64,000 nucleotides of DNA from an uncultured Thermoplasmata archaeon (GTDB lineage: Archaea > Thermoplasmatota > Thermoplasmata > RBG-16-68-12), in contig CAVYJM010000006.1 in NCBI GenBank assembly GCA_963768855.1, positions 352,001 to 416,000 on the forward strand, given 5' to 3'. The first letter of the stretch is position 1, and each line of letters starts with the position of its first letter. The position numbers and the translations under genes were made by a program. Below the pieces are notes generated by a model. It was not told the origin of the DNA and made no database searches. It saw only the letters and a program-made list of their open reading frames with translations. Below are positions 4,693 through 56,030 of the stretch, in pieces.

Positions 4693-5683
4693 CGCCGTTC
4701 GACCTCCAGCGGGCGACGTCCTTCGTGTGGTACGTCAGGATGAGGTCGGCCCCCGCCCTCCGGATCGCGGTCAGCGTCTCCTCGACGACCGCCCGCTCGT
4801 CGATCCAGCCGCGCTCCGCGGCCGCCTTGATCAGGGCGTACTCCCCGCTGACCGCGTACGCGGCCAGGGGCGCGTCGAACCGCTGCCGCGCGGCGTGGAG
4901 CACGTCGAGGTACGGGAGCGCCGGCTTGACCATCACGATGTCCGCGCCCTCCTCCAGGTCCAGGGCGATCTCGCGCAGGGACTCGCGGAGGTTCGCGGGG
5001 TCTTTCTGGTAGCTGCGGCGGTCCCCGAACTGCGGGGTCGAACCGGCCGCCTCGCGGAAGGGGCCGTAGAACGCGGAGGCGTGCTTCGCCGCATACGCGA
5101 GGATGATCGTGTCTTCGAAGCCCGCGCGATCCAGGGCGGTCCGGATCGCGGCGACCTGGCCGTCCATCATCGCGCTCGGGGCGACCATGTCCGCGCCCGC
5201 CGCCGCTTGGCTGACGGCCGTGCGGGCCAAGAGCTCGAGGGAGGCGTCGTTGTCGATCCGGCCGCCCCGCACGACCCCGCAGTGCCCGTGGTCCGTGTAC
5301 TCGCAGAGGCAGACGTCCGCGAGGACGGTCAGGTCGGGGGCGGCGCGCTTCACGGCCCGAATCGCCTCCTGGACCACGCCGTCGTCCGCGTAGGCGCCCT
5401 GCGCGAGCGGATCCTTCTGGCTCGGCAGGCCGAAGAGGATGACCGCAGGGACGCCGAGGGCCGCGAGCTCCGTCGCCTCCCGCGCGACCTCCTCGACCGT
5501 GTGACGCCGGATGCCCGGGAGGGACGGGATGTCTGCGGGGATCGCGCCGTCCTCGCGAACGAACAGGGGTTGCACGAGGTGCGCGAGATCCGCGGTGGTC
5601 TCGCGGACGAGCGACCGGATCGCCGCGTTCTGTCGGAGACGCCGGAGCCGCTGCTTGGGCCGGGGGACTGAGAGGTCACTCAT
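4685..5683 (-). CDS. hemB: Porphobilinogen synthase (Zn-type)
   Basis: [49 protein letters not shown]; start ATG 5683. Confidence 0.96.
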
Positions 5684-6458
5684 GGGCACGCAGCTCCACG
5701 AGACTCTTGACGAGCCCCTCGATCGTGTGGTCCTGGGCGACCACCGCAATGCGGAAGCCGAGCATCCGCGCGGCCTCTGCGGTGACCGGGCCGATGGCCG
5801 CCGCGGGCGTCCTTTCCAGGAGGCGGGAGAAATCGCCTTCCGACATCAGCGATGCCAGATTCTCCGCGGAGGAGGCGCTCGTGAACACGACGTAATCGAA
5901 GCGGGAGCCCGGCACGGGACTCGGTGTCGAAGCGGCGGGCACCGCATCGTACGCGTCGACCTGGAGGACATCCGCGCCCCGCGCCCGGAGGGCGTCCGGC
6001 AGGGATTGGCGGGAGATGCGGGACCGCGGAAGCAGGATGCGCCGGCCTCGGATGTCGCCCAACAGTCCGGCAATGGCATCCGTGACGTATTCAGTGGGGA
6101 CCGCGTCGGCCGGCAGGCCGTTCCGCTGCAGGGCGGCCCGAGTCACCGGACCGACGGCCGCGATGCGGGCGCGGGTGTTCCTCAGGTTCACATGCAACGT
6201 GCGGGCACGGTTCGCGACCGCATCGACCCCATGGGCGCTCGTGAACACGATCCAGTCGAAGGAGGACCACTGCTGGAGGGCCTCGTCGAGGGGGTGGAAA
6301 TCCGAGGGGGGATTGATCCGGACCGTGGGGAAGGGCACGACCGCGGCTCCCTGATCCTGGAGGGCGTCGCGGAGCTTCGGGACGCGGTCCTCGGAGCCCG
6401 CGACGAGGATCGTGCGTCCGGAGAGCGGCTTGTCGTCCCTGTCCTCGGTCTCGTCCAT
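5676..6458 (-). CDS. hemD: Uroporphyrinogen-III synthase
   Basis: [43 protein letters not shown]. Confidence 0.92.
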
Positions 6459-7381
6459 CAGATCGCCTCCCGGAGGATGTCGTCCGCGCCCCCATCTCGG
6501 AGGCGGGACGCGACCGCGTCCGCAGTCGCGCGCCAGGCGTCGACGGGCGCCTGCACGACGGCGCGGACGACGCGCTGCCCGTCCGGGGACGCCACGACGG
6601 CCTGAAGCCGCAAGCCCTGCTCCTCGATCGTCGCGAGGGCCCCGAACGGGACGTTGCAGCCGCCGCCCAGGAGGGCGCTCACGGCTCGTTCGGCGTCGGT
6701 CGTCCGGCGGGCGTGTGGATCCTCAATCGCCCGGAGGATGGAACGGATCTCCGAGTCGGCCGCCCGGCTCTCCAGGGCGAGCGCTCCCTGGCCGGGCGCC
6801 GGAGTCAGGAACTCGGGCGCGATCGGTTGGGGCTGGCGGTCCCCGAGCCCCAGGCGGGTCAGTCCCGCTCCCGCGATGACGACCGCGTCGAAGTCCTTCG
6901 CGTCGAGACGCCGCAGGCGGGTGCCCACGTTGCCACGGAGATCGACCAGACGGAGGCCGGGCCACCGGGCCTTGAGCTGGGCGCGGCGCCGGAGGCTGCT
7001 CGTGCCCACGCGCGTGCCCTCGGGCATGTGATCCAGGGAGAGCCCGTCGTTCGCGATGAGGACGTCCCGCGGGTCCGCGCGCGCCGGGACGGCCGCGATC
7101 TCGAGTCCGGGCACCAGCTCCGTCGGCACATCCTTCAGGCTGTGGACCGCGAAGTCGATCGCCCCCTCGAGGAGCGCGTCCTCGATCCGCTTCGTGAAGG
7201 CGCGCTTGCCGTCGATCGGGACGCCGAGGTCCTCGCGGCGGCCCTCGTCGCCGTGCGTGCGGATCTCCACGGTCTCGAACACGAGATGCGGGTGCGCCAC
7301 GCGGAGCAGGGTGAGGGCCTCCTCGGTCTGGGCGAGGGCCAGCGGGCTCCCTCGCGTCCCGACCCGGAGGCGGTCGCTCAT
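6458..7381 (-). CDS. hemC: Hydroxymethylbilane synthase (porphobilinogen deaminase)
   Basis: LRVGTRGSPLALAQ, AVHSLKDVP, GTSSLRR, LRGNVGTRL, PAPGQGAL, GGGCNVP; ATGA overlap with the hemA stop. Confidence 0.96.
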   Translation of the reverse strand: MSDRLRVGTRGSPLALAQTEEALTLLRVAHPHLVFETVEIRTHGDEGRREDLGVPIDGKRAFTKRIEDALLEGAIDFAVHSLKDVPTELVPGLEIAAVPARADPRDVLIANDGLSLDHMPEGTRVGTSSLRRRAQLKARWPGLRLVDLRGNVGTRLRRLDAKDFDAVVIAGAGLTRLGLGDRQPQPIAPEFLTPAPGQGALALESRAADSEIRSILRAIEDPHARRTTDAERAVSALLGGGCNVPFGALATIEEQGLRLQAVVASPDGQRVVRAVVQAPVDAWRATADAVASRLRDGGADDILREAI

Positions 7382-34438: not shown

Positions 34439-34545
34439 GGGATTCGCGATGCGCCGTGCGCGGTTAATGCTTGCTCTCCGCCCCCCCGCCGCCGAAACGT
34501 TTATGGCCGTCGAACCGGTCAGGCGGGCCCACTGAGGTTTCCTTC

Positions 34546-35025
34546 ATGGCGGAGAAACTTGATGTCCTCGTCGACGGAGGCAAGGCCACGCCCGGCGCGC
34601 CCTTGGGCCCCGCCCTCGGCCCCCTCGGCGTGAACATCGTCGAGATCATCAAGGCGATCAACGAGAAGACGAAGGCCTTCGAGGGGATGAAGGTCCCCGT
34701 CACCCTCGTCGTCGACCCGAAGACGAAGGCCTACACGATCACGGTCGGCACGCCGCCGACCTCCGCGCTGATCACGAAGGAGCTCGGGATCGAGAAGGGC
34801 TCCGGCGACGCGGGCAAGACGCGCGTCGGCAACATGACCCTCGCCCAGGCGATCAAGGTCGCGAAGATGAAGGAGGGCGTCATGCAGGGGAAGACGCTCA
34901 AGTCCCGCGTCCTCGAGGTCGTCGGCACGGCCGTCTCGATGGGCGTGAGCGTCGAGGGCAAGCCCGCGAAGGAGACGGCCAAGGAGATCAAGGCGGGCAA
35001 GTTCGACGCGAAGCTCGCCGGATAG
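34546..35025 (+). CDS. rpl11: 50S ribosomal protein uL11
   Basis: GGKATPGAPLGPALGPLGVN, GTPPTSAL, EVVGTAVSMG; own BRE/TATA cgaaacgtttatg. Confidence 0.97.
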   Translation: MAEKLDVLVDGGKATPGAPLGPALGPLGVNIVEIIKAINEKTKAFEGMKVPVTLVVDPKTKAYTITVGTPPTSALITKELGIEKGSGDAGKTRVGNMTLAQAIKVAKMKEGVMQGKTLKSRVLEVVGTAVSMGVSVEGKPAKETAKEIKAGKFDAKLAG

Positions 35026-35055: not shown

Positions 35056-36501
35056 CTAGAGCGGGGCTGGCTCCGTCTCCGCGTAGGGGCGGAGCAAGGC
35101 GTCGCCCTTCTCCCGGATGTCCCGGTCCAGCGGCTCGACCTGGTGTTCGCGGAGCGTCTTCCGCACGACCTCCCGCGCGTCCGCCACCATCCGATCCGAC
35201 ATCGTCGCCCCGTAGGTCTGGGCCTTCTTGTTCCGGAAGAAGAGCTGGCTTCGGAAGTTCTTCGTCGTGTGGGGATGGCTGAGGAACGAGCCCCCGGGGC
35301 CGACCTCGCGGATCACGTCCAGGGACGCGGTCGTCTCGTCCACGGAGAAGTGCCTCATGTACGCGCGGAAGTCCTCCCAGTTGACCGCATCGATGACCAT
35401 CTGCTCCAGGGAGCAGCCTGCGTCGAGGTTGAGCCCGCCGATCCCGGAGCACAGGTCCGTCCCCGACATGGTCGTGAGCATGAGGGCCGCGAGTTCGCCG
35501 AAGGGGATGTCCACGCCCGGGCGGGGTGCGTCGACCCCGATGATGCCCGTCATTCGCGGCAAGCCGTACCGCCGCGCCATCTGGGCCGCCGCCGCGAAGA
35601 TCATGGGCGCCTCCGGCCCGCGGTACCCAATGTAACCCGAAGCCATGTCCGCCATCGTGGCCTCGGAGCAGTAGATGTGCGGCGCCCCGGACGCGGCGGT
35701 CTGCGTGATCACGAGGCTCGCGAGGGCCTCGGCATTCAGGGTGACGATCGTCCCGGCGAGGGTGACAGGCGCGGTGATCCCGCCCATGGCCATGGACATG
35801 CCGATGACCGGGATGCCCGCCCGCGCGTACTCGATCTGCGCCTCGACCGCGCCGGTCTCGAAGGAGAGCGGTGCGATGGGACAGCTCAGGACGGAGAACA
35901 GCGGGTGCTTCTTCAGCGCCTCCCTTCCTCCCGCCACGAGGGCCCCGAGGGCGATCTGGATCTTCGCGTCGGGCACGCCCAGCGTCCCCGATCCCGCGGA
36001 GCCGAGGATGTGCTTCGTCGTGTTCTGGAGGCACACCCAGAGTTCGTTCGCGAACTGCGCATGGGCCGGCACGTCCGACGTCGTCACGAGCGGCCAGACC
36101 GCGTCGATCGGGTCGAGCGCATCCGCGAGGCGCGCGATGTCCGCGAGGTCCTTCGTGGTCGCGGGGCGCGGCTTCCCGGTCTCCAAATCGGTGATGGAGA
36201 GGGTCACGCCGCCCGTGGACACGTACGGCGGGCCGCTCACCGGGATTCGGAGGTCGCGGTGCGGGTCCCGGGCGCCGAGGACGAAGGACTTCGGTGCCGT
36301 GAGGATCGAACTGGCCACGAGGGCCTCCGGGAGTTTCACGAGCTCCGTGCTGCGGCCGATCTGGGCGCCCGCGTCCGCGAGCATCTTCCGGACGCTCGCG
36401 CTGTGGACGAGCACGCCCACCGACTCGAGGCACTCCACGCTCTGCGCGTGGATGAGATCCTCTTCCGCCTTGTCCAGGAACCGGAGACCTAAGACCGCCA
36501 T
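35056..36501 (-). CDS. MttB-superfamily (trimethylamine methyltransferase-like) protein, non-pyrrolysine
   Basis: IHAQSVECLESVGV, APKSFVLGARDP, APVTLAGTIVTLNAEAL, LEQMVID, EVGPGGSFLSHPHT; no in-frame TAG; start ATG 36501. Confidence 0.88.
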   Translation of the reverse strand: MAVLGLRFLDKAEEDLIHAQSVECLESVGVLVHSASVRKMLADAGAQIGRSTELVKLPEALVASSILTAPKSFVLGARDPHRDLRIPVSGPPYVSTGGVTLSITDLETGKPRPATTKDLADIARLADALDPIDAVWPLVTTSDVPAHAQFANELWVCLQNTTKHILGSAGSGTLGVPDAKIQIALGALVAGGREALKKHPLFSVLSCPIAPLSFETGAVEAQIEYARAGIPVIGMSMAMGGITAPVTLAGTIVTLNAEALASLVITQTAASGAPHIYCSEATMADMASGYIGYRGPEAPMIFAAAAQMARRYGLPRMTGIIGVDAPRPGVDIPFGELAALMLTTMSGTDLCSGIGGLNLDAGCSLEQMVIDAVNWEDFRAYMRHFSVDETTASLDVIREVGPGGSFLSHPHTTKNFRSQLFFRNKKAQTYGATMSDRMVADAREVVRKTLREHQVEPLDRDIREKGDALLRPYAETEPAPL

Positions 36502-36654
36502 GGGATATCCCTGCGCTGCGCGGGGTAGCCGTCTGGGGGGCTTCATGGCTGAGTAAGGGGTGTAACGACTTTCACGCCCAGGGAAAGGGTACAGGGTGGG
36601 GTGATCCATGCGCTTGAGGCGAAGGGTCAAGCGCCGCTCTCTGTTCGTCACGAC

Positions 36655-37089
36655 ATGGCCCTCGAACTCAGCGCCGTGATCCCTGCGACCCCGGACCAGG
36701 TGTTCTCCATCCTCTCGGACCTGAACCAGGCCCGGGAATGGATGCCCGCGATCCAGAGGATCGAACGCTTGGACGACAAGCCGTTCGGCGTCGGGACGTC
36801 TTGGCGGGAGACGCGCCAGGCCGGCAAGCGGACGATGGAGTCGACGATCCACGTGGTCGCCTGCGAGCGCGGGTCGCGAATCGGGCTCCGCGTGGAGTCC
36901 TCCGCCATGGAAGGCGACATGGAGTTCCTCCTGAAGCCCACAGGGCCCGGGACAGAGGTGCAGTACCGCGCCCAAATGAAGGGCCGCGGGGTCATGCGGC
37001 TCATGGGCGGCACGATCAACAGGATGATGGCCGAGGAGGACGCGGACCTCCTCATGCGGCTCGAGAAGCAGGTCTCGAAGAACCGCTGA
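36655..37089 (+). CDS. SRPBCC/polyketide cyclase-like protein
   Basis: ATPDQVFSILSD..WMP, GVGTSWRETR; ATG 36655. Confidence 0.8.
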   Translation: MALELSAVIPATPDQVFSILSDLNQAREWMPAIQRIERLDDKPFGVGTSWRETRQAGKRTMESTIHVVACERGSRIGLRVESSAMEGDMEFLLKPTGPGTEVQYRAQMKGRGVMRLMGGTINRMMAEEDADLLMRLEKQVSKNR

Positions 37090-37118
37090 TGCGATCCCGC
37101 CTCCGGCCGCGGGACGGC

Positions 37119-37628
37119 TCAGTGGTCTTCCGTCGTGTCGTACTTCTCCGATTCCGACCTCAAGTCGTAGGGTCTCCACTCGTAGGGCCACCACATCACC
37201 GCCGCGATCGTCATCATAACGGCCCCAACCTGGAAGAGGACGAAGTTCATGAGCGACCCAGGTTTGGCCTGGAGGACGGCGCCCTCCATGGAGAATCCCA
37301 CGACGAAGACGATTAGGGCGATGGTCGCCACGACCTCATCCTCAAGGGGGTGCTTGGTGTGGGTGACCGGGTGGCGGTCTACCGGGCCGCCAACGGCTCG
37401 GTTGCTCGTGCGCGCACGCTTCCGCAGGGCCCGACGGCGACGCGCCTCCAGGTAGATGGCCGCGTCGACGAAGCCCACGACGACGAGGCCCGCCGGTCCG
37501 ATCCAATAGGGAATGGCGAATTGCAGGAGAAACAGGAGGAGGATTCCCAGGGTAATGCCGCCTACGACCCCGGCGGCGCGCAGCCGCCCCCAGAAGCTCC
37601 GCCTTCGCGCCACAGGTGAGCCAAGCAC
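37119..37628 (-). CDS. Small hypothetical membrane protein (4 TM); start uncertain
   Basis: Two pairs of hydrophobic helices separated by a basic loop. Confidence 0.55.
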   Translation of the reverse strand: MLGSPVARRRSFWGRLRAAGVVGGITLGILLLFLLQFAIPYWIGPAGLVVVGFVDAAIYLEARRRRALRKRARTSNRAVGGPVDRHPVTHTKHPLEDEVVATIALIVFVVGFSMEGAVLQAKPGSLMNFVLFQVGAVMMTIAAVMWWPYEWRPYDLRSESEKYDTTEDH

Positions 37629-37787
37629 GCTTAAGCGGATAGAGATTTCCGGGGAACTCCTCGCTGCGCGGGATCAAGACGGCGGCCTCGCTCACGCGGT
37701 AGGGAATGAAAAGGAAGGGTCGAAAGAAAAGGGAGAAGGGTTCAAAGGACGGCCGGTTCCGGTACTATGTGCTCGCGTCAGAGGACA

Positions 37788-37916
37788 TCACGACTCCTTG
37801 AGCGAGCGGCGCTCCAATCCGAACGCCCGCCGGTCCGAATCAAAGATCCGGTTCGGGTATTCGGATGGAAGCACCTGGTGGCGCCGGAACAGTTCAAGTT
37901 CGAGCACACCGGGCAA
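37788..37916 (-). CDS. Putative 42-aa small protein
   Basis: TTG start 4 nt after a perfect GGAGGTGA Shine-Dalgarno (37921-37928); MPGVLELELFRRHQVLPSEYPNRIFDSDRRAFGLERRSLKES. Confidence 0.5.
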   Translation of the reverse strand: MPGVLELELFRRHQVLPSEYPNRIFDSDRRAFGLERRSLKES

Positions 37917-38161: not shown

Positions 38162-38983
38162 TCAGGGTTCGGGCGCGCGGGCGACCTTCATCTCGCGGCC
38201 GGCGTCCTCGCCGACGTGCTCGAGCATCGCCTCGAGCTGGATCCGGACGAAGTCCATGTCCCCGACCCACAGCCCCTGGATCTTGTCGCTCACGAGGACG
38301 CCATCGCGGTAGAAGGAGTTCACGATGAAGACCTCCTGGTCGCTCGGGAAGACGTAGCTGTGGGCGAGGCGGGTCTTCGGCAGGGGCCGGTCGGGGAAGC
38401 GGAACGAGACGCGGACGTTGCGGCCCAGGATGGCGCCGAGCTCGGGCAGGTCCTTCTTGTTCCCTTCGTTCAGGACGACGCGCACGACGCGCCGCGACCG
38501 GCTCAGGGCGTCGAACAGGAGTCGGAGGACCTCGGGGGCCACGGGGAACGGGCAGACGCAGAGGATCTGGTTCGTGCTCGACAGCACGATCTCCCGCATC
38601 TTTCGGCCGATGCCCTCCGCACCCTTGTAGATCCAGAGGTCCCCGTCCGTCTCCCGCGCGTGCGGGACGGCGGGCTCGCGGAGCGTGGCGACGAGCTCCG
38701 AGGCGGCGGACAAGTCGTCCGTCCGGACCTGGCGGGCCTCCTCCGCGACGATCCGCGGCGCCCGAGCTCGGTAGCGGTTGGGCCGCTCCTGCGAGACCTC
38801 GATCCACCCCTTCGTCTGGAGGGACTGAAGGATGCGGTAGACTGCGGGATACTGCACCTCCAGCAACGCGCTGACTTGCTGCGCCGTCGACACGCCGTTC
38901 CGCAGCAGGGCCAGATAGGCCCGGGCCTCTTTCCCGGTGAGGCCGAGGGCCTCGAAGGCCCTCGTCGCTTCCTCCTCTCGCAC
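38162..38983 (-). CDS. TrmB-family transcriptional regulator
   Basis: LGLTGKEARAYLALL, YRILQSLQTKGWIE, PNRYRA, LWIYKG; GTG start at 38983. Confidence 0.88.
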   Translation of the reverse strand: MREEEATRAFEALGLTGKEARAYLALLRNGVSTAQQVSALLEVQYPAVYRILQSLQTKGWIEVSQERPNRYRARAPRIVAEEARQVRTDDLSAASELVATLREPAVPHARETDGDLWIYKGAEGIGRKMREIVLSSTNQILCVCPFPVAPEVLRLLFDALSRSRRVVRVVLNEGNKKDLPELGAILGRNVRVSFRFPDRPLPKTRLAHSYVFPSDQEVFIVNSFYRDGVLVSDKIQGLWVGDMDFVRIQLEAMLEHVGEDAGREMKVARAPEP

Positions 38984-39024
38984 GACGGACCATGGGGAGG
39001 CCCGATACAAAAGGCTTCGCGTTC

Positions 39025-39045
39025 TTATCATTGCCCGGCTGATAA
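39025..39045. promoter_or_regulatory. Inverted repeat TTATCA-N9-TGATAA, candidate TrmB operator
   Basis: Perfect 6-bp arms ~40 bp upstream of the trmB-like start. Confidence 0.45.
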
Positions 39046-39296
39046 TGCGCGGCGTCCGCGTTGGCGGGGCGGTTCATCCGTCGCGAGAAGATGCAGCGAT
39101 AGGGACGAGGTCTCCTTTGACGAGGCGTTCAGTCCCTCCGCTTCCTTTCGGGCGTTCATGCAGGGGGCCAGCCGGGGGCGACTCGGAGCCCCTGCAGCAT
39201 GCAGGCTCCGACTGTTTCGGTCAACCTAAATCCTGAGAATTGTGTTCGCCACGTATATATCTCCGAGGGCGACATGGACCGACCGGCAACGAAGGG

Positions 39297-42709: not shown

Positions 42710-42737
42710 TCAAGAGAAAACCAGGAGGTGACACACC

Positions 42738-43046
42738 ATGGAATACGTATATGGGGCGCTGGTCCTGCACGCGGCCGGCCAGCCGGTGAACGAGGCGAAC
42801 CTGAAGAAGGTCCTGACCGCCGCCGGCGTGAAGGTGGACGAGACGCGCGTGAAGGCCCTGACCGCCGCACTCGAGGGCGTGAACATCGACGAGGCGCTGA
42901 AGGCCGCCGCCGCGATGCCCGCCGCTCCCGCGGCCGCACCCGCAGCCGAGAAGAAGGACGAGAAGAAGAAGGAAGAGAAGAAGGAAGAGGAGAAGGTCTC
43001 GGAGGAAGAGGCCGCTGCGGGCCTGGGTGCGCTCTTCGGCCTGTAG
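42738..43046 (+). CDS. rpl12: Archaeal stalk protein P1/L12
   Basis: [11 protein letters not shown], Ala-rich hinge, [21 protein letters not shown]; SD GGAGGTGA. Confidence 0.97.
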
Positions 43047-43305
43047 GCCGGAGTCCGCACCTCACCTGCTTTTTCCATTTCCTTCGAGGAGTAGCGGGAG
43101 CGCTGAGGCACCGTCAACGAGTCGTGACATTTTCCATGAGTCTGTGGTTTGACCGAGGCGACTCGCGTTCGACTCCTTTGGTGACTTTAATCGATGGGAC
43201 GTGCCTCGGGGTTGATGCGAAGTGGCCATCGTGCGGGCCCAACGCTCAGACCACTTCACCTCGGCGCGCTCTGTGCGAGAGCCCATGCATGTTGCTTGAG
43301 TTGCT

Positions 43306-44601
43306 TCACAGACGCTCGAGGGAATCACACCATTTCTTGAGTTGACTCGTAGGAACCCCTAGAGTCGCGGCAGATTTCCTCTCCCCATGCTGACGGTCCG
43401 ACTCAAGCGATCGAAGAGAAGCAGCCTTGGTCGAGCTCCCGTAGAGCTGCAGTTCCTGCGCCCTGATGCGCATGAAATGTCTGCCAGCCAGTGCCCGGTC
43501 GAGTAGATCGAATGCCTCGGCAATCTTGGCGGAAGCGCCCCTCGCAGTCGTAGTGTTCAGGAGGGAGCGGCAAACAGAGCACTTGCAGAATTCGCTCGGA
43601 TTCGCTGCATAGTAAGTGATTGCATTCGCTTTTACGACCTTCGTGTGTGCCCAAGGGACATAATAGCGAATGGGGGGGCCCCCGCCGCTTGCCTGGCGGG
43701 CAACGCCTTTCCATTCTGCGTAGCAGACGCCTGAAGACACTCCCTTCAACCCCGCGGCGGAAAGCATCAAGGCGTAGAACCCCCCATAGAGGGCCATCGG
43801 AGCGACCCCCCGCTCTGCGAGTTGCTGAACCAGACGTCCGTAGCCCATGAGCTGTGTTTCCGAGGAATGTGATTCGTCGAACTCGGAAATCCACAAAAGG
43901 ACACTTGGGAACTCGGCGTAGTCTGCGACAACTTGGTCGATGGAATCCTCGTCCAACAAGACGCGATCAGACAGGCAGATGACTGGGACAGTTAGTTCGG
44001 TTTTCCGCCGCGAGGCCGCACACTTTGCCATCTCGAGCGAAATAGAATACCATTCATCATCAATGGATGATGCATGGAAATAGGGTGCCACGAGGAACTC
44101 CGGTTCCAGTTGGGGGATCTCAGAACTCTCTCCAATCATTTGGAGATAGTCGGAAATCCTCCGCTGTGTCGATTCGCCTCGGGAGAGAGCAGTAAGTTCG
44201 AATGACAAGACTCTGTCAACCCATTCACGACCCGCAGCATTCAGCCTGCCGTTCTCGAAGAAATCGCGCGGCCTCAGCGGCCGCTTGCCAGCGATGGTGG
44301 GGAGTATGCCACCATATTCTTCGATTAGCTGGACATATGACTGTCGAAGGTCGTCCTCTTTCAGGACCATGCTCGGATCTTGAGCGAAGATGTAGGTCAT
44401 CGGGTCGATAAAGAATGGCTTCCGTGTCCTACCCAAAAGACCCGCGGCCCAGGATTGCCCCCACGCAGCAACGTTGGCGCCTATTACGATTCCATAGTAG
44501 CTGGGTGCTTCGGCCTCAAGGGGACCTGCGTCAGGCGCTATCCCCAATCGGTAGTAGATACGCAGGCTGCCGGACTTCCGAGGCAATTGGGCATCACCCA
44601 C
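43306..44601 (-). CDS. Uncharacterised 431-aa protein, probable TIM-barrel of the TGT/DpdA/beta-protein-like group with a C-terminal Zn site
   Basis: FFIDPMTY, LVAPYF, alternating beta/alpha pattern, GGGPPIRYY, CKCSVC-x30-H; GTG start overlaps the upstream stop. Confidence 0.6.
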   Translation of the reverse strand: MGDAQLPRKSGSLRIYYRLGIAPDAGPLEAEAPSYYGIVIGANVAAWGQSWAAGLLGRTRKPFFIDPMTYIFAQDPSMVLKEDDLRQSYVQLIEEYGGILPTIAGKRPLRPRDFFENGRLNAAGREWVDRVLSFELTALSRGESTQRRISDYLQMIGESSEIPQLEPEFLVAPYFHASSIDDEWYSISLEMAKCAASRRKTELTVPVICLSDRVLLDEDSIDQVVADYAEFPSVLLWISEFDESHSSETQLMGYGRLVQQLAERGVAPMALYGGFYALMLSAAGLKGVSSGVCYAEWKGVARQASGGGPPIRYYVPWAHTKVVKANAITYYAANPSEFCKCSVCRSLLNTTTARGASAKIAEAFDLLDRALAGRHFMRIRAQELQLYGSSTKAASLRSLESDRQHGERKSAATLGVPTSQLKKWCDSLERL

Positions 44602-45007
44602 GAGTCATTACCTGACTCCTCACCGCGGCAAGGAAGGCGGGGTACAGAACCTTGGATGTTTGAGCCCGCATCTCGACCTTAGCAATTCCATCGACTGCCA
44701 TGAGTCCGATTCCGTACTTCGCCAAAAGCTCTAGATCGACGCTCGGTACGTGCCGGGCCGAAACCGCGAGAAAGGCCTCGTGAGCGCAGAGCCTGTACGG
44801 GAGGACTTGTTGCAGACCCTGCCGCCAGTGGTCGACTTTTGCCTCGACGGCGACAACGTGCCCTGTGCGCGGAAGGACTCCGACTAAATCGATTCGCTTT
44901 GACAGAAAAGGAACCTCTGCCCGGACGCGATACCCAGCCTCGGCAAGGTAGCGTCGCACCCGCCATGTGACTTGCGTTTCCTTTTGCGGGTCATTTGTGG
45001 TCTTCAA
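44594..45007 (-). CDS. Small PD-(D/E)XK nuclease-fold protein (MmcB/sce7726-like)
   Basis: E..V..YL..GY.V..EV...RIDLV...VAVEAK...QGLQQ...Y. Confidence 0.75.
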   Translation of the reverse strand: MKTTNDPQKETQVTWRVRRYLAEAGYRVRAEVPFLSKRIDLVGVLPRTGHVVAVEAKVDHWRQGLQQVLPYRLCAHEAFLAVSARHVPSVDLELLAKYGIGLMAVDGIAKVEMRAQTSKVLYPAFLAAVRSQVMTRG

Positions 45008-45395
45008 TCACAAGCGTCTCCTTCCATTTCTTGAAGCCGTGGTCGCACGATAAAACCTTTCCTCCCCGCTCATGGCGGGCCAGCACAAGGAGGGTACAAT
45101 CGACCATACTAAGGCCCTTGGCTTTGGGATCAGCCAGCAGCCGGCCTATCTCGGCGACGATGGACTCGGGGATTTGAGTCTCGATGCGACTAAGGGTCCG
45201 AATGCGATCGGTGTCCTTTTCGTATCCCTCATGAGAGATGCCTGACTTGGCGTAGTGTTTCTTCAGCTCTACGAGGACGAGCGCATGGGTAACGTTGTAA
45301 TCGGCGCCGATGAGGTGGTCTCTAATCTTCTTCCCGCGGCCGGGCTCTCGGAAGAACGCTATCCATGCTGAGGTGTCCACAATCAACACACGCAA
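44991..45395 (-). CDS. PIN-domain (VapC-like) ribonuclease
   Basis: VDTSAW, LVELK, LSMVDC..L..AR, VLSCDHGF; TTG start approximate. Confidence 0.85.
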   Translation of the reverse strand: MRVLIVDTSAWIAFFREPGRGKKIRDHLIGADYNVTHALVLVELKKHYAKSGISHEGYEKDTDRIRTLSRIETQIPESIVAEIGRLLADPKAKGLSMVDCTLLVLARHERGGKVLSCDHGFKKWKETLVIEDHK

Positions 45396-45411
45396 GCATT
45401 GGACACTCCGG

Positions 45412-45981
45412 TCATGTCGCCCTCTCGAGATCAGGTCGGCTTCCGACGCCAAGCACATCGTCGAGGATTTTTGACTTTACCGTCATCCCTCTATAGTTGG
45501 CGTAAACATACTTCAACAACTCACTGAGCGGAACTCGGTTGAACCGTGTCTTGAGGCGTTCGAGAGCCCGCCTCTCTTCCGGCGTCAACTGGGCGAATAC
45601 CTTCTCTCCGACTTGGAGGCCGCGATCCGTCAGCCGATAAATCTCGACCTTCCCTGGTTCTCCCCCCGCATTCACCGATCCGGTCGCTGCTACCGCGTCA
45701 AGCATGTCGCGGTGGCTTTCAAACTTCTCCACATCAACCGCCAGTAGGTTTGCCTGCTTGAGCGCCTCGAGGTAATCGACGACCTCCTTAGAGTAGGGTC
45801 CGAGCTCGTAGGGCTTGTATGCGTATTCGGTCTTCGCCTCCTCAAAGCCTCCCTCCTCGAGAGCGAGGAAGACGAGCTTCTCAAGCCTTGTCACCCCTCG
45901 AATTGGCTCTCCCACGTGCTTGCTAGCCCCCTTGGCATAGAGAAGGCCCACTAGCAGGTCGAGTCCGAGGTTCCTTGCCAT
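45412..45981 (-). CDS. Panacea/SocA (DUF4065)-like wHTH protein
   Basis: GVTRLEKLVFL, YKPYELGPYSKEV..L, IYRLTDRG, FN..PLSELLKYVY..Y; TATA tttaaga ~33 bp upstream. Confidence 0.72.
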   Translation of the reverse strand: MARNLGLDLLVGLLYAKGASKHVGEPIRGVTRLEKLVFLALEEGGFEEAKTEYAYKPYELGPYSKEVVDYLEALKQANLLAVDVEKFESHRDMLDAVAATGSVNAGGEPGKVEIYRLTDRGLQVGEKVFAQLTPEERRALERLKTRFNRVPLSELLKYVYANYRGMTVKSKILDDVLGVGSRPDLERAT

Positions 45982-46155
45982 TTTCCCTCACGTTTCATAG
46001 ACCGCCGTGCTTGTCTTAAAGGTGCCTGAGGGGCCTGAGAATCGCATTGTCGCGACGCAATATTCCACGCCACTCTGACGGTTTCTGAGCCTCTCCTGAG
46101 GAACTTGACCCTACGTAACGTAGCCGGCGCTTATTGGGTCTGGGAATCCTCGGAA

Positions 46156-46440
46156 TTACAGTCCGTGTCCGCTCTCCGTCAGATTCCGCAGCCGCTGCAG
46201 GAACATCGCCACGGCCGCCCCGTCGACCACGTCGTGGTCGAACACGATCGTCATCCCGAGGAACTCGCAGGCCTCCACGCGGTCCTCCACCACCGCGGGC
46301 TTCTGCGCGATCGCCTCGAGCGCCACGCTCAGCGGGTGGGACTCGACCGGGATGCCCCTGCTGCTCCCGCCCGAGACCTTCCCGAACATCCCCACGGACG
46401 TCACGCGGACCGTCCCCATCGTCCGCTTCATGCGGAACGG
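46156..46440 (-). pseudogene. C-terminal remnant of a 2-oxoacid dehydrogenase E2 (acyltransferase)-like gene
   Basis: MGTVRVTSVGMFG..FDHDVVDGA..F..RL; N-terminal part missing, fused to the end of the upstream gene. Confidence 0.7.
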
Positions 46441-47186
46441 GCCGCGTCCGGTTGGGCCACGGCAGCGTGCCCCGCACGCCAGTACACGAGGCTCATCATT
46501 GTTCCGGAAGCGATGAGCACGATCCAGTTGATCGTAAGGATCGTGACCTCGAAGGCGACGATGTCTTGCGCCGCGACCGCCAGGGCGACGAAGGCGACGA
46601 CCGCCAAGACGAAGCCCGCGACGAAGAGCCAGCGGACGGCCCGCTCCGCGCGTCCTCCCTCGAACACCGGCGCGGTGAAGAGGAAGGCCACTGTCATGAG
46701 CAAGTAGCCGAGCGCCTCGAACACGATGAAGAACCCATGGGGATTGTACTGCGTGAACAGGGAGAGCCCGGCCGTCTCGCCGGCCTGGAGGCTTGGCACG
46801 ACGATTGCGAGCTGGATAGCGTAGTCCACTAGGATGACGGCGGCGTAGAGCAGGGCGAAGGACAGTCCGATGCGGCTGAAGACCTTCTTGCCCTCTGCGG
46901 CGTACGCATGGATGCAGGCCATGAGAACGACGAACGTGGGCGCCAACAGGATCCCTGGGACGAGCCAGACGTAGTCCTGGGGGATGAACGCGGCCACGTC
47001 CGTATAGGGGTACGGAACACAGGCGGTCCCGCAGAACGGGCCGCTCCTAGGGGGCGTCGAGATGCCCATGACCATGAACACCGCGGCCAGCACGGCCGTC
47101 AGGAAAGCCGACCAGAATCCCAGCCGGAATGCGTTAGTCGTGGCGAACGCCTCCGTCTCGGTATCAGGCGTAGCCGCCGTGGCCAT
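46428..47186 (-). CDS. Conserved hypothetical multi-pass membrane protein
   Basis: ~6-7 TM helices; CGTACVPYPY loop, QYNPHGFFIVFEALGY. Confidence 0.75.
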   Translation of the reverse strand: MATAATPDTETEAFATTNAFRLGFWSAFLTAVLAAVFMVMGISTPPRSGPFCGTACVPYPYTDVAAFIPQDYVWLVPGILLAPTFVVLMACIHAYAAEGKKVFSRIGLSFALLYAAVILVDYAIQLAIVVPSLQAGETAGLSLFTQYNPHGFFIVFEALGYLLMTVAFLFTAPVFEGGRAERAVRWLFVAGFVLAVVAFVALAVAAQDIVAFEVTILTINWIVLIASGTMMSLVYWRAGHAAVAQPDAARSA

Positions 47187-48344: not shown

Positions 48345-48532
48345 GGTTTCCCTACTGCTTCGTGGCTCCCGGGGTCCGTGAATGCGATTGAGGCGTACTT
48401 ATGGTCGAGGGTCCCCCACGCCACGCGGTTCTGGGCCCCGGAACGCCGCCAAACGCGCGCAGCCCTCGGTATCAATCGCGTCTATTACCCAGGAAGGTTC
48501 TTTTGGCGTCGCTCCTCACGGGGACTCCCAGC

Positions 48533-49453
48533 ATGCTGCTCGTGGCCATCGTCGGGGATCGCGGGTCCGGGAAGACGACCTTCCTCGGTCTCCTCTACGC
48601 GGCGCTCGTGAGCTCCGGCTCGGACAAGGAGGACGACCTCCGCTTCCACGTGGCCTACGAATCCCTCGATGAGATCACGGCCCTCTACCAGCGGCTCATG
48701 TCCGGTGGCTTCCCCGATTCCGCGACGAAGGAGGGGATTCACGAGCTCCGCGTCGAGCTCGGGGCCGGCAGCTCCGGTCGCGGGTTCCTCTCGCGGCTCG
48801 GGTCCCGGAAGGGGGCCGCCGGCGCGTCCACGACGATCCGCTTCACCTTGCCGGGGAATCTCGACGAGGCGGCCCATGGGTTCGATCAAGGGAGCACGTT
48901 CGGCACGGGACCGTGGCGGGAGGCCCTCGATGCGGACGTCCTCCTCATCGTGGCAGACAGCACGAAGCTCACTCCCAAGGCCGAGGACCCCAAGCCGGGG
49001 CCCATGGCGACCTACGACGACCAGATTGACTCCCTGTTCACTGCGATTCGCCGATGGCGGGCGCGAGGGGGACGCGAGGTCGTGCACCCCGTCTTCGTCC
49101 TTTCCAAGTTCGATTCCGTGGCCCCCGCGGTGCTGACCGCTGCGGAGCTCGAGCCCACCCCGCCGGACGCCTCCAAGCCGGGCCCTCGAGCCGCGTACGC
49201 GAGGGCCCTCCTGGATCCCAACCTCCCGCGGACTCTCGCAACCCTCCGGGAGACGGGCAAGGCCCGGCCCCGGCTCGCCGAGGCGCGCTACTTCTTCAGC
49301 TCCGTGCATACGAAGGCAGGCGCCCCCGGGCAACTGCCGAAGATCAAGCTTCGGGGTGGCGGCCACGGCGGCTGGGAACCGGACTATTCGAAAGACGAAC
49401 ACCTTGCTCTCTTGGAGAGGCTCGCGGAGATCGCGGCGGAGACGAAAGCCTGA
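48533..49453 (+). CDS. TRAFAC-class GTPase paralog 1 (degenerate G3)
   Basis: G1 GDRGSGKTT, FPDSAT, TLPG in place of DxxG, ADSTK, G4 SKFD; start ATG 48533. Confidence 0.78.
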   Translation: MLLVAIVGDRGSGKTTFLGLLYAALVSSGSDKEDDLRFHVAYESLDEITALYQRLMSGGFPDSATKEGIHELRVELGAGSSGRGFLSRLGSRKGAAGASTTIRFTLPGNLDEAAHGFDQGSTFGTGPWREALDADVLLIVADSTKLTPKAEDPKPGPMATYDDQIDSLFTAIRRWRARGGREVVHPVFVLSKFDSVAPAVLTAAELEPTPPDASKPGPRAAYARALLDPNLPRTLATLRETGKARPRLAEARYFFSSVHTKAGAPGQLPKIKLRGGGHGGWEPDYSKDEHLALLERLAEIAAETKA

Positions 49454-49541
49454 GGCAGACGGCCCCTCCGGCGGCGCGTCCTTTGCAAGATTGATAATTC
49501 CCAAGCAGGGTTTAAGTACGCAAGCGCCGGGTGAGGCCCTC

Positions 49542-50549
49542 ATGCCCTGCGCTCTCTTGGGGGATCGAGCCTCCGGTAAAACGACCTTCTTGGGCCTCCT
49601 GTATTCCGCTCAGGTGAAGTACGGTACGGGCGTGCATGATGACTTCCGTTTCCATGCGCCCATGGCCTCCCTGAACGTCATGTCGGCCGTCTACGAAGGG
49701 ATGAAGGACGCTCGCTTCCCGAGCGCCACCCTGAAGGAAGAAATCACGGAGCTCAGCTTCATCTTCGGTTACCTGCGGAAGGTCCAAGGCAAGCTCCCGT
49801 ACTACATCCGCCAGCAGAACTGGGCGAAACCCTTCTCCACCCTGAGATTCTCCGCCTACGACGTGTCCGGCGAAGACATCGAGGAGTTCATCGAGAGCGG
49901 CATCGCGTCGCGTCCCCTCATCCAACAGCTTCTGAAGAGCGTGGTCGTGGTCGTGCTCGTGGACTGCAGCAAGATGACGACGGACATCGACACGCCTCCG
50001 TACAAGAAGATGCTGCGGTACGACAGCACGGTCGCCAAGCTGCTCGTGGCCTTCCAGACGTACAAGAAGCAGGAGTATGACCGGCTCAAGGACTCCGGTG
50101 TCAACCCGGAACCGCCGATGATCTACCCCGCCTTCGTCCTCTCCAAGTTCGACACCCTCCGCGACGACGTGCTCGCGCGGCTGGGCTTGCACCAGGGCTT
50201 CCCCGAGGACAAGCGCGCCCGGAAAGAATACGCCGAGGCCCTGCTCCGGGTCTTCGTCCCCCAGACCCTCTCTCAGATCCGCGGCGGAAAGGTCGCGGGC
50301 GTGAGCATGGACAAGGCCGCGTACTTCCTCAGCTGGGTCCGCACGGAGACCCAGGAGGGCATGGAGCCCGTCGGCCAGCCGCGGATCGTGCGGACCGGAT
50401 TCCGGCCCGAGGGCGGCGGGGAGCCCGACTTCTCGTACGACGAGTACGTGAACTTCATCGAGCACTTCCGCCACATCGCGAACAAGATCCCCGATGAGAT
50501 CCTCGAAGCGGAGAAGTTCCAGGCCCAGTCCCTCATCCGACCGAACTAG
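49542..50549 (+). CDS. TRAFAC-class GTPase paralog 2
   Basis: G1 GDRASGKTT, FPSAT, G3 DVSGE, VDCSK, G4 SKFD; TATA tttaagta at 49511-49518. Confidence 0.85.
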   Translation: MPCALLGDRASGKTTFLGLLYSAQVKYGTGVHDDFRFHAPMASLNVMSAVYEGMKDARFPSATLKEEITELSFIFGYLRKVQGKLPYYIRQQNWAKPFSTLRFSAYDVSGEDIEEFIESGIASRPLIQQLLKSVVVVVLVDCSKMTTDIDTPPYKKMLRYDSTVAKLLVAFQTYKKQEYDRLKDSGVNPEPPMIYPAFVLSKFDTLRDDVLARLGLHQGFPEDKRARKEYAEALLRVFVPQTLSQIRGGKVAGVSMDKAAYFLSWVRTETQEGMEPVGQPRIVRTGFRPEGGGEPDFSYDEYVNFIEHFRHIANKIPDEILEAEKFQAQSLIRPN

Positions 50550-50555
50550 GGGGCA

Positions 50556-51421
50556 GTGCCGCGGCGCCCACGAAGCCCTCCGCATCGTCCACTACCGGGG
50601 ACGTCGCCCAATTCGACCATTGGATCTATGCGGTCGTTCCGAACGTTGGCTACACCACGAAAGCCCTCTCCCGAGGGTTCGATGCCGGCCTGTTCGACCC
50701 TTACCTCCGCGGGCATTACACCCCGATCCGCGCGGCTGCCGCCCAGGACATCGACGGCGAGGTCGACCTGCGGATGATCCACCCCATCCGGACCGGGCGG
50801 GAGGTCCTCCTGTCGCGCATCACGCGAGGCATCCCGGACGAGGCAGGCCGGCCGACGTTCACGAACCACACGGTCGTCGCACGTGTGGATCTCCTTCGGT
50901 CCGGTCGGGTTACCCTGGAAAGGACCTTCCGGGCGATCTCCGAGTTCGACGCGAAATCCTCCGGCGCCCAGGGGGAAGTCGACCTGCTGAGGGTTCCCAT
51001 GCGGCCCGAAGACGAAGGTCCGCCGCGCTATGGGGAGGGGATCCACAAGCATCTCACCTTCGCGGCCCTCGAGACCCTCGCGACCCGAGTCATGAAGGAC
51101 GCGACGAGCCGGACCCTCCTCCTGTGCCGCAACTCCACGGCCGAGGCCCGGAACGCGACCCTCATCCTGATCGTCGAGCTCCTGGCATGGAAGTGTGGGC
51201 TCCCTCTCTTCACCGCGATCAGCGACCCGCCCAGGGCGTCCGCGCTGAACCACTTCAACCTCGTGATCGCGCAACGAGGCGTCCGCGCGGATTCCAGCTG
51301 GGCCATCCTTGAAAGCGCCCTCACGGAACACGTTCTCCCCCGCGTGCCGGACCGCGAGGAAGTCTACCGGGCGCTGAGCGCGGCCGTTCGTCAATCGGCC
51401 GACGGCGGGCGCGCCGAGTAG
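50556..51421 (+). CDS. GTPase-associated protein with GAP1-N-like N-terminal domain (start probably masked by a 1-bp deletion near 50558)
   Basis: The frame of ORF 50774 stays open upstream: QFDHWIYAVVPNVGYTTKALSRG..MIHP..DEAGRPTFTNHTVV; the GTG at 50556 is out of frame with it. Confidence 0.6.
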
Positions 51422-54989: not shown

Positions 54990-56030
54990 ATGGCGACCCG
55001 GAAACCCGACAACATGGAGGATGCGCTCGCGGCGGCGCGGGAGATCCTCACCACGCAGGACCAGGACCTGCGTTCCATGCTCTACCGGGACATCCTCCTC
55101 AACGCGCTGAAGTGCAAGCGGGACGACCTCGACATCCTCGACCTCAAGGTGATCAACCGGGCCGTCGCGGAGTTCCGACACGCCGCGCGCGTCTTCAAGC
55201 CGTACCGGGGCGTCCGGAAGGTCTCCATCTTCGGGTCCGCCCGGGAGAAGAAGGGCAGCCCGAACTACGAGGAGGCCGTCCGGTTCGGCCGCTCCCTGGT
55301 CGAGCGAGGCTTCATGGTCATCACGGGCGCCGCGGAAGGCATCATGCGGGCCGGGGTGGAGGGGGCCGGAGCCGAGAACAGCTTCGGCGTGAACATCCTC
55401 CTGCCCTTCGAGAAGGGACCCAACCAAGTCCTCCACGACGATCCCAAGGTGGTCCGGTTCAAGTACTTCTTCGTGCGCAAGGTGTTCTTCGTCATGGAGG
55501 CGGACGCGGTCGCGCTGTTCCCCGGCGGATTCGGGACGCACGACGAGGGGTTCGAGGTGCTGACGCTCCTGCAGACGGGGAAGGCGCCGCCCATGCCCGT
55601 GGTCCTCATGGAGCTCCCCGGGCAGCGCTACTGGGAGAGCTGGGACCGATTCGTCCGGCAGGAGCTCCTGGCCCGCGGTTTCGTCAATCCGGAAGACCTC
55701 ACGTTATATCGGATCGTGCGTTCGTCGGAGGAAGCGACGGACTGGATCGCCTCCTACTACTCCACGTACCACTCCCAGCGCCAGGTCGGGAACCGCCTGG
55801 TCATCCGGCTGGAGAAGGAGCTCTCGGACGGTCAGGTCGCGACGCTGAATGCCACGTTCCGGGACCTCGTGGCCTCGGGCAAGATCTCCAAGACGGCACC
55901 CCTGCGCGAGGAGGCGGACGAACCCGAGCTTCGGTCCAAGCCGCGGATCATGTTCGCGTACGACCGGGGCCGCGCGGGGCGCCTGAACGAGCTGATCCTG
56001 GCGATCAACCGGATGGGCCGCACCATCTGA
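54990..56030 (+). CDS. LOG-family nucleotide monophosphate nucleosidase (long form)
   Basis: VSIFGSAR, ITGAAEGIM, YFFVRK, PGGFGTHDE. Confidence 0.9.
   Translation: MATRKPDNMEDALAAAREILTTQDQDLRSMLYRDILLNALKCKRDDLDILDLKVINRAVAEFRHAARVFKPYRGVRKVSIFGSAREKKGSPNYEEAVRFGRSLVERGFMVITGAAEGIMRAGVEGAGAENSFGVNILLPFEKGPNQVLHDDPKVVRFKYFFVRKVFFVMEADAVALFPGGFGTHDEGFEVLTLLQTGKAPPMPVVLMELPGQRYWESWDRFVRQELLARGFVNPEDLTLYRIVRSSEEATDWIASYYSTYHSQRQVGNRLVIRLEKELSDGQVATLNATFRDLVASGKISKTAPLREEADEPELRSKPRIMFAYDRGRAGRLNELILAINRMGRTI

Follow-up and report, generated by a model that had tools for sequence, protein, structure and literature searches.

Lamassu, the cyclic-oligonucleotide-based anti-phage signaling system (CBASS), Thoeris, retrons, SIR2-HerA and DSR combine a sensor core with swappable effectors, and PIN RNases, small membrane proteins and SIR2 NADases are the usual suicide effectors of abortive infection. 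Closest to the locus described here are, on the one side, the PanAT and DarTG toxin-antitoxin systems (Kurata et al., 2022, PMC8832971; Ernits et al., 2023, PMC10440598). The signature of Panacea proteins is a GPV motif that is critical for neutralization (PMC8832971). On the other side are proteins of the tRNA-guanine transglycosylase (TGT) family, of which DpdA and Cap10 (the latter from type IV CBASS) act in defense; the zinc subdomain, which helps to stabilize nucleic-acid binding in QTRT1-type TGTs, was lost in the protein-modifying Cap10 (10.1101/2025.04.06.647259). Here we analyze an operon in which both folds occur together. It is located at positions 43306-45981 of a 64,000 nucleotide (nt) long stretch of DNA, called the window in the following, from an uncultured Thermoplasmata archaeon (assembly GCA_963768855.1, contig CAVYJM010000006.1, positions 352,001 to 416,000 of the forward strand). 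The operon consists of four tightly packed open reading frames (ORFs) on the minus strand, which encode a Panacea-like protein (A), a PIN domain protein (B), a PD-(D/E)XK nuclease-like protein (C) and a TGT-like zinc protein (D). The operon was probably acquired by horizontal transfer, as one copy of an unnamed four-component cassette that is widespread and probably acts as a module of the defense or abortive-infection type.

To describe the cassette beyond this genome, 185,579 species genomes were scanned with a degenerate pattern, which resulted in 41 loci, and the neighborhoods of homologues with 24-64% identity were also read. Altogether, 47 non-redundant loci were recovered from D alone, and iterated hidden Markov model searches were performed over all their ORFs. 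Genes A, C and D are found in the same order in essentially all 47 loci; the exceptions are one locus that is truncated by its contig and one without a detectable C. The reverse approach, starting from three A homologues that were chosen for their long contigs, showed that all three are part of an A-C-D cassette. In total, about 50 loci, distributed over many phyla of archaea and bacteria, show the order A-C-D.

The fourth gene, in contrast to A, C and D, is variable. In 12 loci a PIN domain protein, belonging to one of two families (PF01850 and PF13470), is encoded between A and C. In 19 loci this position is occupied by a membrane protein of 160-280 amino acids (aa) with two to four predicted transmembrane helices; these membrane proteins belong to several unrelated families. 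In a further 12 loci nothing is located between A and C, and a SIR2-like protein of approximately 400 aa is encoded directly after D. Every locus of the 47-locus set that lacks an insert between A and C carries such a SIR2 gene after D. The SIR2-like protein contains the motifs GAGFS, NWD and HGS and matches PF13289, PF02146 and the PADLOC SIR2 models. In a quick tree of the D proteins the effector classes are clustered, with at least eight changes of class being needed to explain their distribution, and the clades mix phyla and both domains.

At least three kinds of gene can take the fourth place, and the PIN gene is only one of them; thus the PD-(D/E)XK protein belongs to the constant core together with the TGT-like protein. 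A role of C as a second effector beside PIN, which the initial annotation of the locus had assumed, is unlikely: C stays in place where PIN is swapped for a membrane protein or a SIR2 protein. Since A, C and D are constant and the fourth gene varies, selection acts on A-C-D together with one toxic effector. The proposal that the four genes form one system is therefore supported by their co-occurrence elsewhere, but it has to be narrowed, as the conserved unit is A-C-D and PIN is exchangeable. That the genes would never be found together in other genomes is clearly contradicted by their recurrence in about 50 loci. The four domain calls (Panacea-like, PIN, PD-(D/E)XK and TGT-like zinc protein) were all reproduced with tools, and the statement that no named system matches also stands, since PADLOC gave a partial match of A to the PDC-M19A model and none for C or D.

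Direct scans of the four window proteins with Pfam, NCBIfam, PADLOC and PHROG named only the PIN domain. The AlphaFold2 model of D has a predicted local distance difference test score (pLDDT) of 93 and a predicted template modeling score of 0.91. An exhaustive comparison with 48,161 PDB chains revealed that the five best structural matches all belong to the TGT superfamily: archaeosine TGT (ArcTGT; 1iq8, Z 21.7), bacterial TGT (3unt, Z 20.6), QTRT2 (6fv5, Z 16.9), the DNA preQ0 insertase DpdA (7ui4, Z 16.4) and Cap10 (9ntn, Z 15.4). Generic TIM barrels follow after a gap, with Z values of 12.9 or lower, and Foldseek agrees with this assignment (probability 1.0, TM score approximately 0.5). Searching the PDB sequences with D in phmmer gave no match, and D belongs to no Pfam family. 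Alignment of D with ArcTGT and TGT by hhalign reached probabilities of 9-41%, and the zinc motif is the only segment that was aligned with any confidence. This motif, CxCxxC...H, is located after the barrel; 38-39 of 40 sequences have C339, C341 and C344, and all 40 have H375, while the Cys3-His site is missing from the D copy of the Arthrobacter plasmid pSI-1.

Conserved acidic residues of D are D66, E243, E296 (35 of 40 sequences) and E383. E296 is found near the position of the TGT nucleophile, in an alignment of low confidence. D66 and E243 are located at or just past the C-terminal ends of predicted beta strands, which is where the active sites of TIM barrels sit. These acidic residues might form a TGT-like pocket. 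Relatives of D are numerous: a word-indexed search yielded 42 matches, and a profile search found 1,215 representative clusters, 660 of them at E values of 1e-30 or lower. Fused, longer forms of D were not found by the search, which is weak evidence. A separate observation concerns Bacillota proteins of 665-683 aa in ESM Atlas clusters. These combine a Ser/Thr protein kinase with a domain that matches D at TM scores of 0.77-0.78 and, judged by the predicted structures, may represent a fused sensor-kinase version of the D fold; sequence searches did not recover these proteins.

The residues E10, D40, E55 and K57 of C do not vary among 29 orthologues; they constitute an E-D-ExK motif with the order and spacing expected of the PD-(D/E)XK superfamily. 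Matches to known families are below threshold or weak: PF18741 (REase_MTES_1575) was found with 20.3 bits (cut-off 38.2), the PHROG endonuclease family phrog_12193 with an E value of 1.7e-5 and the Hjc resolvase 1gef with an E value of 0.85. In the Atlas, features of C place it near Mrr_cat/MmcB-like clusters. Judged by its sequence, C is a minimal PD-(D/E)XK nuclease-like protein. C and D are translationally coupled throughout the family.

The window protein A does not match the Pfam Panacea model PF13274, neither in hmmscan (E values up to 1) nor in a genome-wide search (E values up to 10); 16 of 25 A homologues do match it, the best with 3.8e-7. The AlphaFold2 model of A (pLDDT 79) has its best structural match in the DarT-binding C-terminal domain of DarG (7yk3_D; Z 10.8, root mean square deviation 4.6, 146 residues aligned over residues 3-177). 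Generic winged helices reach Z values of at most 8.6, and Foldseek also places 7yk3 first. Residues 61-63 of A read GPY, of which G61 and P62 are invariant in 25 sequences, and A homologues from Haloarcula are annotated in RefSeq as SocA-domain antitoxins. In addition, the C-terminal part of A (approximately 50 residues) matches the PADLOC model PDC-M19A, which has 294 positions, at positions 79-131 with an E value of 1.6e-11. This match was found in all nine A proteins tested and spans one fifth of the model; a search for literature text on PDC-M19 found none.

The PIN domain of B was identified with PF01850 (E value 1.5e-11; 45.4 bits, cut-off 23.6), and eight orthologues all share its acidic residues D7, E43, D99 and D118 (counted from the TTG start). 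The match of B to the VapC equivalog NF047959 (22 bits) is below the cut-off of 80. The sequence thus identifies B as a bona fide PIN domain but not as a canonical VapC. Since the PIN protein is too small to have a sensor of its own, it would have to be controlled by a partner. A complex of A with B was predicted with an interaction score (ipSAE) of 0.58, compared with 0.01 for the best control; the pLDDT of the partners is at least 88 and the runs share at least 84% of the contacts. The score has to be read against two benchmarks: among 80 solved complexes only seven passed at 0.60 or lower, and both passing pairs of 110 mismatched ones fell in this range. The predicted complex gives weak support to the idea that A binds and silences the adjacent effector.

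The coordinates of the operon and its islet are listed in the table. The tight arrangement of four minus-strand genes behind one TATA-like box, as described in the initial annotation, was borne out. The TATA-like box, a TTTAAG element upstream of the ATG of A, is the putative single promoter for all four genes. Bacterial-type promoter and terminator signals were not found above shuffled controls, and a sigma-70 scan is not applicable to this DNA. Alignment with homologues suggests that translation of B starts at TTG 45395, which results in a protein of 134 aa and a spacing of 16 nt between A and B; if ATG 45458 is used, the two genes overlap by 47 nt. C overlaps with B by 17 nt and D with C by 8 nt (GTGGGTGA). 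The public gene call for D (P0001) comprises 354 aa. D homologues are 412-466 aa long and align from residue 3-16 on, and the fold is confident from residue 11; these homologue lengths and the model indicate that the public call is probably short by 77 residues at the N terminus and that GTG 44601 is the correct start.

Table. Coordinates of the operon genes, the putative promoter and the surrounding islet in the window.
Feature	Position	Strand	Length	Description
Gene A	45412-45981	-	189 aa	Panacea (SocA/DUF4065)-like winged helix with C-terminal helical extension
Gene B	44991-45458	-	155 aa as ORF	PIN-domain RNase, exchangeable effector in this copy
Gene C	44594-45007	-	137 aa	Minimal PD-(D/E)XK nuclease-like protein, core component
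Gene D	43306-44601	-	431 aa	TGT-superfamily (beta/alpha)8 barrel, core component
TATA-like box CCTTTAAGAC	46012-46021	-		Putative promoter element, visible in the sequence itself, approximately 35 nt before the ATG of A
Foreign-composition islet with operon	43060-46150	.	~3.1 kb	GC/GC3 profiles, synteny breakpoint after rpl12

The composition of the operon is foreign to this genome, as had been noted initially. The GC content is 0.53-0.59 in the operon and 0.64-0.70 in the flanks, and the GC content at third codon positions (GC3) is 0.62-0.68 for the operon genes and 0.8-0.95 for their neighbors. The deviant composition is confined to the 3.1-kb cassette. The placement directly after rpl12 was confirmed as well: synteny with four genomes of the same genus is kept up to rpl12 and breaks exactly there. 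The rpl12 gene (42732-43046) is located on the plus strand and ends approximately 260 nt from the D stop codon, so that the operon is convergent and not co-directional with it. The gene that follows rpl12 in the four related genomes is found approximately 48 kb away here (G000:C6:395050-443530, which is 43050 to ~91500 in window numbering). No integrase was found within this non-syntenic region and no flanking direct repeats were found around the cassette. Since the composition outside the cassette is host-like and no integrase was found, these 48 kb give the impression of a rearrangement or an old variable region instead of one island. Among the sequencing runs listed was one of DNA, from a freshwater sediment metagenome, which contained 0.47 of the sampled words; no run of RNA was listed.

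Several other features of the window were observed. The gap between D and rpl12 is filled by an ORF of 88 aa (43062-43328, minus strand, GC3 0.56) that overlaps the 3' end of D by 23 nt; it has no Pfam match and no counterpart was seen in related loci, and it might be a small extra gene or spurious. On the other side of the cassette, an ORF of 91 aa (46156-46431, minus strand) matches only the C-terminal third of PF00198 (positions 148-225 of 232), and the overlapping upstream ORF of 252 aa (46428-47186, minus strand) has no Pfam match. Together they may represent a frameshifted or truncated 2-oxoacid dehydrogenase acyltransferase gene at the cassette edge. Two adjacent P-loop proteins, encoded at 48401-50549 (plus strand) and 50774-51421, show sub-threshold Pfam matches to DO-GTPase1 and DO-GTPase2, which are families of Double-GTPase conflict systems. 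This pair is located 2.4 kb from the cassette promoter and may form a small defense islet together with the cassette. In the non-syntenic region downstream of the cassette, a protein of 346 aa is encoded (54990-56030, plus strand) that combines a Lysine_decarbox (LOG-like) domain with a SLOG cluster4 domain. In three genomes of the same genus (L070, L071 and L073), the counterparts of the genes at 34468-35022 and 38165-39073 lie next to each other, whereas the two are approximately 3 kb apart here, which suggests that positions 35300-37900 are a second insertion in the window.

The cassette is sporadically distributed. Of the 401 genomes sampled from the class, five have strong D matches, and of the 28 genomes of the genus at most two. 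The remaining 15 of the 20 class-level matches are weak (E values of 1e-4 to 1e-5) and were discounted as unrelated TIM barrels; four of these were fetched and have no A or C neighbors, and the one scanned with Pfam is an amidohydrolase. The families seen most often among 103 flanking proteins of the cassettes include serine recombinases, IS110 transposases, integrases, DNA methylases and ResIII. Individual neighbors gave very strong PADLOC matches to Type IIG and Type III restriction enzymes, HmaB, PD-T4-6, a Type I S subunit and mad6. The cassette is also carried by plasmids. On pSI-1 of Arthrobacter sp. AK-1 an A-C-D cassette with a membrane protein gene between A and C is located beside a relaxase, and on pHsi540 of Haloarcula sinaiiensis A-C-D is followed by a SIR2 gene of a different lineage. 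A further A-C-D copy, on the H. marismortui plasmid pNG400 (L114, record 5078-7314), is flanked on one side by an HNH endonuclease/ParA pair and on the other by small ORFs of opposite orientation.

The domain identities, the intact catalytic motifs, the linkage of A, C and D, the swapping of effectors and the mobility are established here, and it is highly likely that the cassette is a genuine conflict system that is mobile and consists of several components. A role against viruses or in abortive infection is probable, though held less firmly; the defense function, the binding partners and the trigger are what we infer from these data. For the way in which the components might work together we can make only a tentative proposal. 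Because C and D are coupled and D keeps the zinc subdomain of nucleic-acid-acting TGTs, the C-D unit might recognize or process invader nucleic acid. A would bind the effector and hold it inactive, like Panacea antitoxins and the C-terminal domain of DarG. Upon sensing of the trigger by C-D, A would relay the signal and the effector would be released or activated. The effector would then stop growth by RNA cleavage, membrane damage or NAD+ depletion, which amounts to abortive infection. That the TGT-like protein senses or marks nucleic acid and that the Panacea protein restrains the effector had already been suggested in the initial annotation, and we likewise infer both.

Taken to its full extent, this proposal would make a TGT-fold enzyme and a minimal PD-(D/E)XK protein the sensor of a new archaeal and bacterial immune system, which switches a Panacea adaptor that releases a PIN, membrane or SIR2 effector. 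The TGT-fold enzyme would recognize, excise or exchange a base in invader nucleic acid (for instance hypermodified guanines), or, alternatively, it would conjugate a base to a protein as Cap10 does. In this complete form the proposal is doubtful. If true, it would be a third, mechanistically distinct immune use of the TGT fold, and for the first time a Panacea protein would be seen to relay a signal among several components instead of being a plain antitoxin.

Several observations weigh against a defense function or against the roles proposed for single components. No experimental phenotype has been found anywhere for the cassette. None of the core proteins matches a validated defense model (PADLOC v2 has no model for C or D), and no D homologue was found in the phage collection. 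The association with defense islands is moderate, many loci being located among housekeeping genes, and the immediate neighbors of the operon in the window are metabolic genes. The fourth gene could not be assigned to a class in four of the 47 loci, and in the copy on pNG400 the strand of A-C-D carries no gene for a PIN, membrane or SIR2 protein; this copy may be effector-less or degenerate, or it may have an unrecognized effector. Concerning D, the TGT base-binding motif DSGG and the nucleophile motif GxDxFD are unrecognizable, and a search with PF01702 (E values up to 1) found the ArcTGT of the host and two other genes of the genome but not D. As D lacks the TGT sequence motifs and the Pfam TGT model fails on it, its enzymatic activity is uncertain. 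A is highly conserved (mean column identity 52%) although the effector, its supposed ligand, varies, which fits binding of A to C, D or DNA at least as well.

Two other explanations would leave the cassette as a conflict system of a different kind. The cassette could be a compact analogue of the Dpd system that works like restriction-modification, with D marking self by exchanging or inserting bases of host DNA or RNA, C cutting invader DNA that is unmarked, and A plus effector serving as addiction or back-up. The fold of D is closest to base-exchanging enzymes, including DpdA, and the zinc site is kept; the nuclease motif of C is complete, and translation couples C to D; and the host has an archaeosine TGT, which suggests that preQ0 is available. 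However, the cassette contains neither a QueC-like gene nor a DpdB-like ATPase or other Dpd genes, and it is present in metagenome-assembled genomes of Patescibacteria, Woesebacteria and Zambryskibacteria. To our knowledge, lineages of this type usually lack 7-deazaguanine synthesis. In addition, the motifs for base binding and nucleophilic attack that such an enzyme would be expected to show are the ones unrecognizable in D, and an obligatory suicide-type effector (PIN, membrane protein or SIR2) is atypical of restriction-modification, so that we regard a Dpd-like function as decidedly unlikely. Alternatively, the cassette could be a pure addiction or stabilization module of mobile elements, that is, a multi-component toxin-antitoxin system without an antiviral role that is kept because its loss kills. 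The presence of a Panacea-type antitoxin beside classical toxin types agrees with this, as does the location of the cassette on plasmids and beside recombinases and transposases. A plain toxin-antitoxin pair, on the other hand, needs no two extra invariant enzymes, and a constant core with a swappable effector is what characterizes sensor-effector immune systems. Moreover, the copy analyzed here is chromosomal, and no mobile element was detected around it. A role in addiction alone is thus unlikely.

The remaining explanations deny that the four genes are a conflict system of their own. A-B alone resembles a standard Panacea-PIN pair, and C and D overlap each other more tightly than they do B, which might mean that a PanA-VapC pair and a separate C-D pair became neighbors by chance. 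This is very improbable, since A is linked to C-D in about 50 loci with or without PIN and is directly followed by C in 12 of them. A housekeeping operon of the host for the modification or repair of tRNA or rRNA could be suspected from the TGT-like fold of D and from the location beside ribosomal protein genes. Against it stand the foreign composition, the convergent orientation relative to rpl12 and the linkage to toxic effectors; of 27 further genomes from the genus that were searched, 26 gave no match to the cassette, and the host already has a canonical ArcTGT. Such a function is extremely improbable.

If the cassette is a defense system, it represents a widespread, so far unrecognized immune module, with approximately 1,200 representatives of the D family at 50% identity. 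The module would be common to Archaea (Thermoplasmata, Halobacteria, Methanosarcinales, Asgard and Nitrososphaerota) and many bacterial phyla. A defense function would extend the new immune role of queuosine-pathway folds, for which DpdA, Cap10 and QatC are examples, and the "hyperpromiscuous" Panacea domain would turn out to work within a sensor-effector machine of several components. The cassette can be tested directly in the three cultured strains that carry it, Arthrobacter sp. AK-1 (pSI-1), Haloarcula sinaiiensis (pHsi540) and H. marismortui (pNG400). The Haloarcula strains may permit tests in archaeal hosts, in which few defense systems beyond CRISPR and restriction-modification have been tested.

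Comparison with the described systems shows where the cassette resembles them and where it departs from them. With PanAT it has in common that A shares the Panacea fold and the GP motif, and that A is located directly upstream of toxins of unrelated folds (PIN and membrane proteins), which is reminiscent of the partner swapping of PanA. With DarTG it shares that the best structural match of A is the toxin-binding DarG domain. PanAT systems, however, consist of two and occasionally three genes, whereas the cassette adds the invariant C and D, which are always found with A. Furthermore, in the SIR2 class the effector is not adjacent to A, and the A protein of the window falls short of the Pfam Panacea model. 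The Panacea survey took operons of at most three genes, and the pNG400 protein WP_049938427.1 is listed there as "no_PanT" (PMC8832971). The follow-up network paper mentions neither TGT nor SIR2, and a literature search for the gene combination and for Panacea in anti-phage contexts found no description.

Like DpdA and Cap10, D has the (beta/alpha)8 fold of the TGT superfamily and is part of a mobile multi-gene conflict locus. It differs from both in being structurally nearer to ArcTGT and bacterial TGT (Z 21.7 and 20.6), in being paired with a PD-(D/E)XK protein, and in a sequence-level similarity that is limited to the zinc motif; Cap10 has no zinc site, whereas D keeps it. The partners of the two systems, DpdB-K for Dpd and CD-NTase with Cap9/QueC for type IV CBASS, were found neither in the operon nor in the approximately 50 related loci. 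Lamassu, CBASS, Thoeris, retrons, SIR2-HerA and DSR resemble the cassette in having a constant core with alternative PIN, membrane or SIR2 effectors, and also in their sporadic, mobile spread with restriction-modification and recombinase neighbors. The SIR2 effectors of the cassette match the PADLOC models of defense SIR2 proteins. The core proteins of these sensor-effector systems (SMC-like proteins, CD-NTase, TIR, reverse transcriptase and HerA) are absent from the cassette. The cassette is thus best regarded as a Panacea-containing conflict system with swappable effectors, the core of which uses a new lineage of the TGT superfamily.

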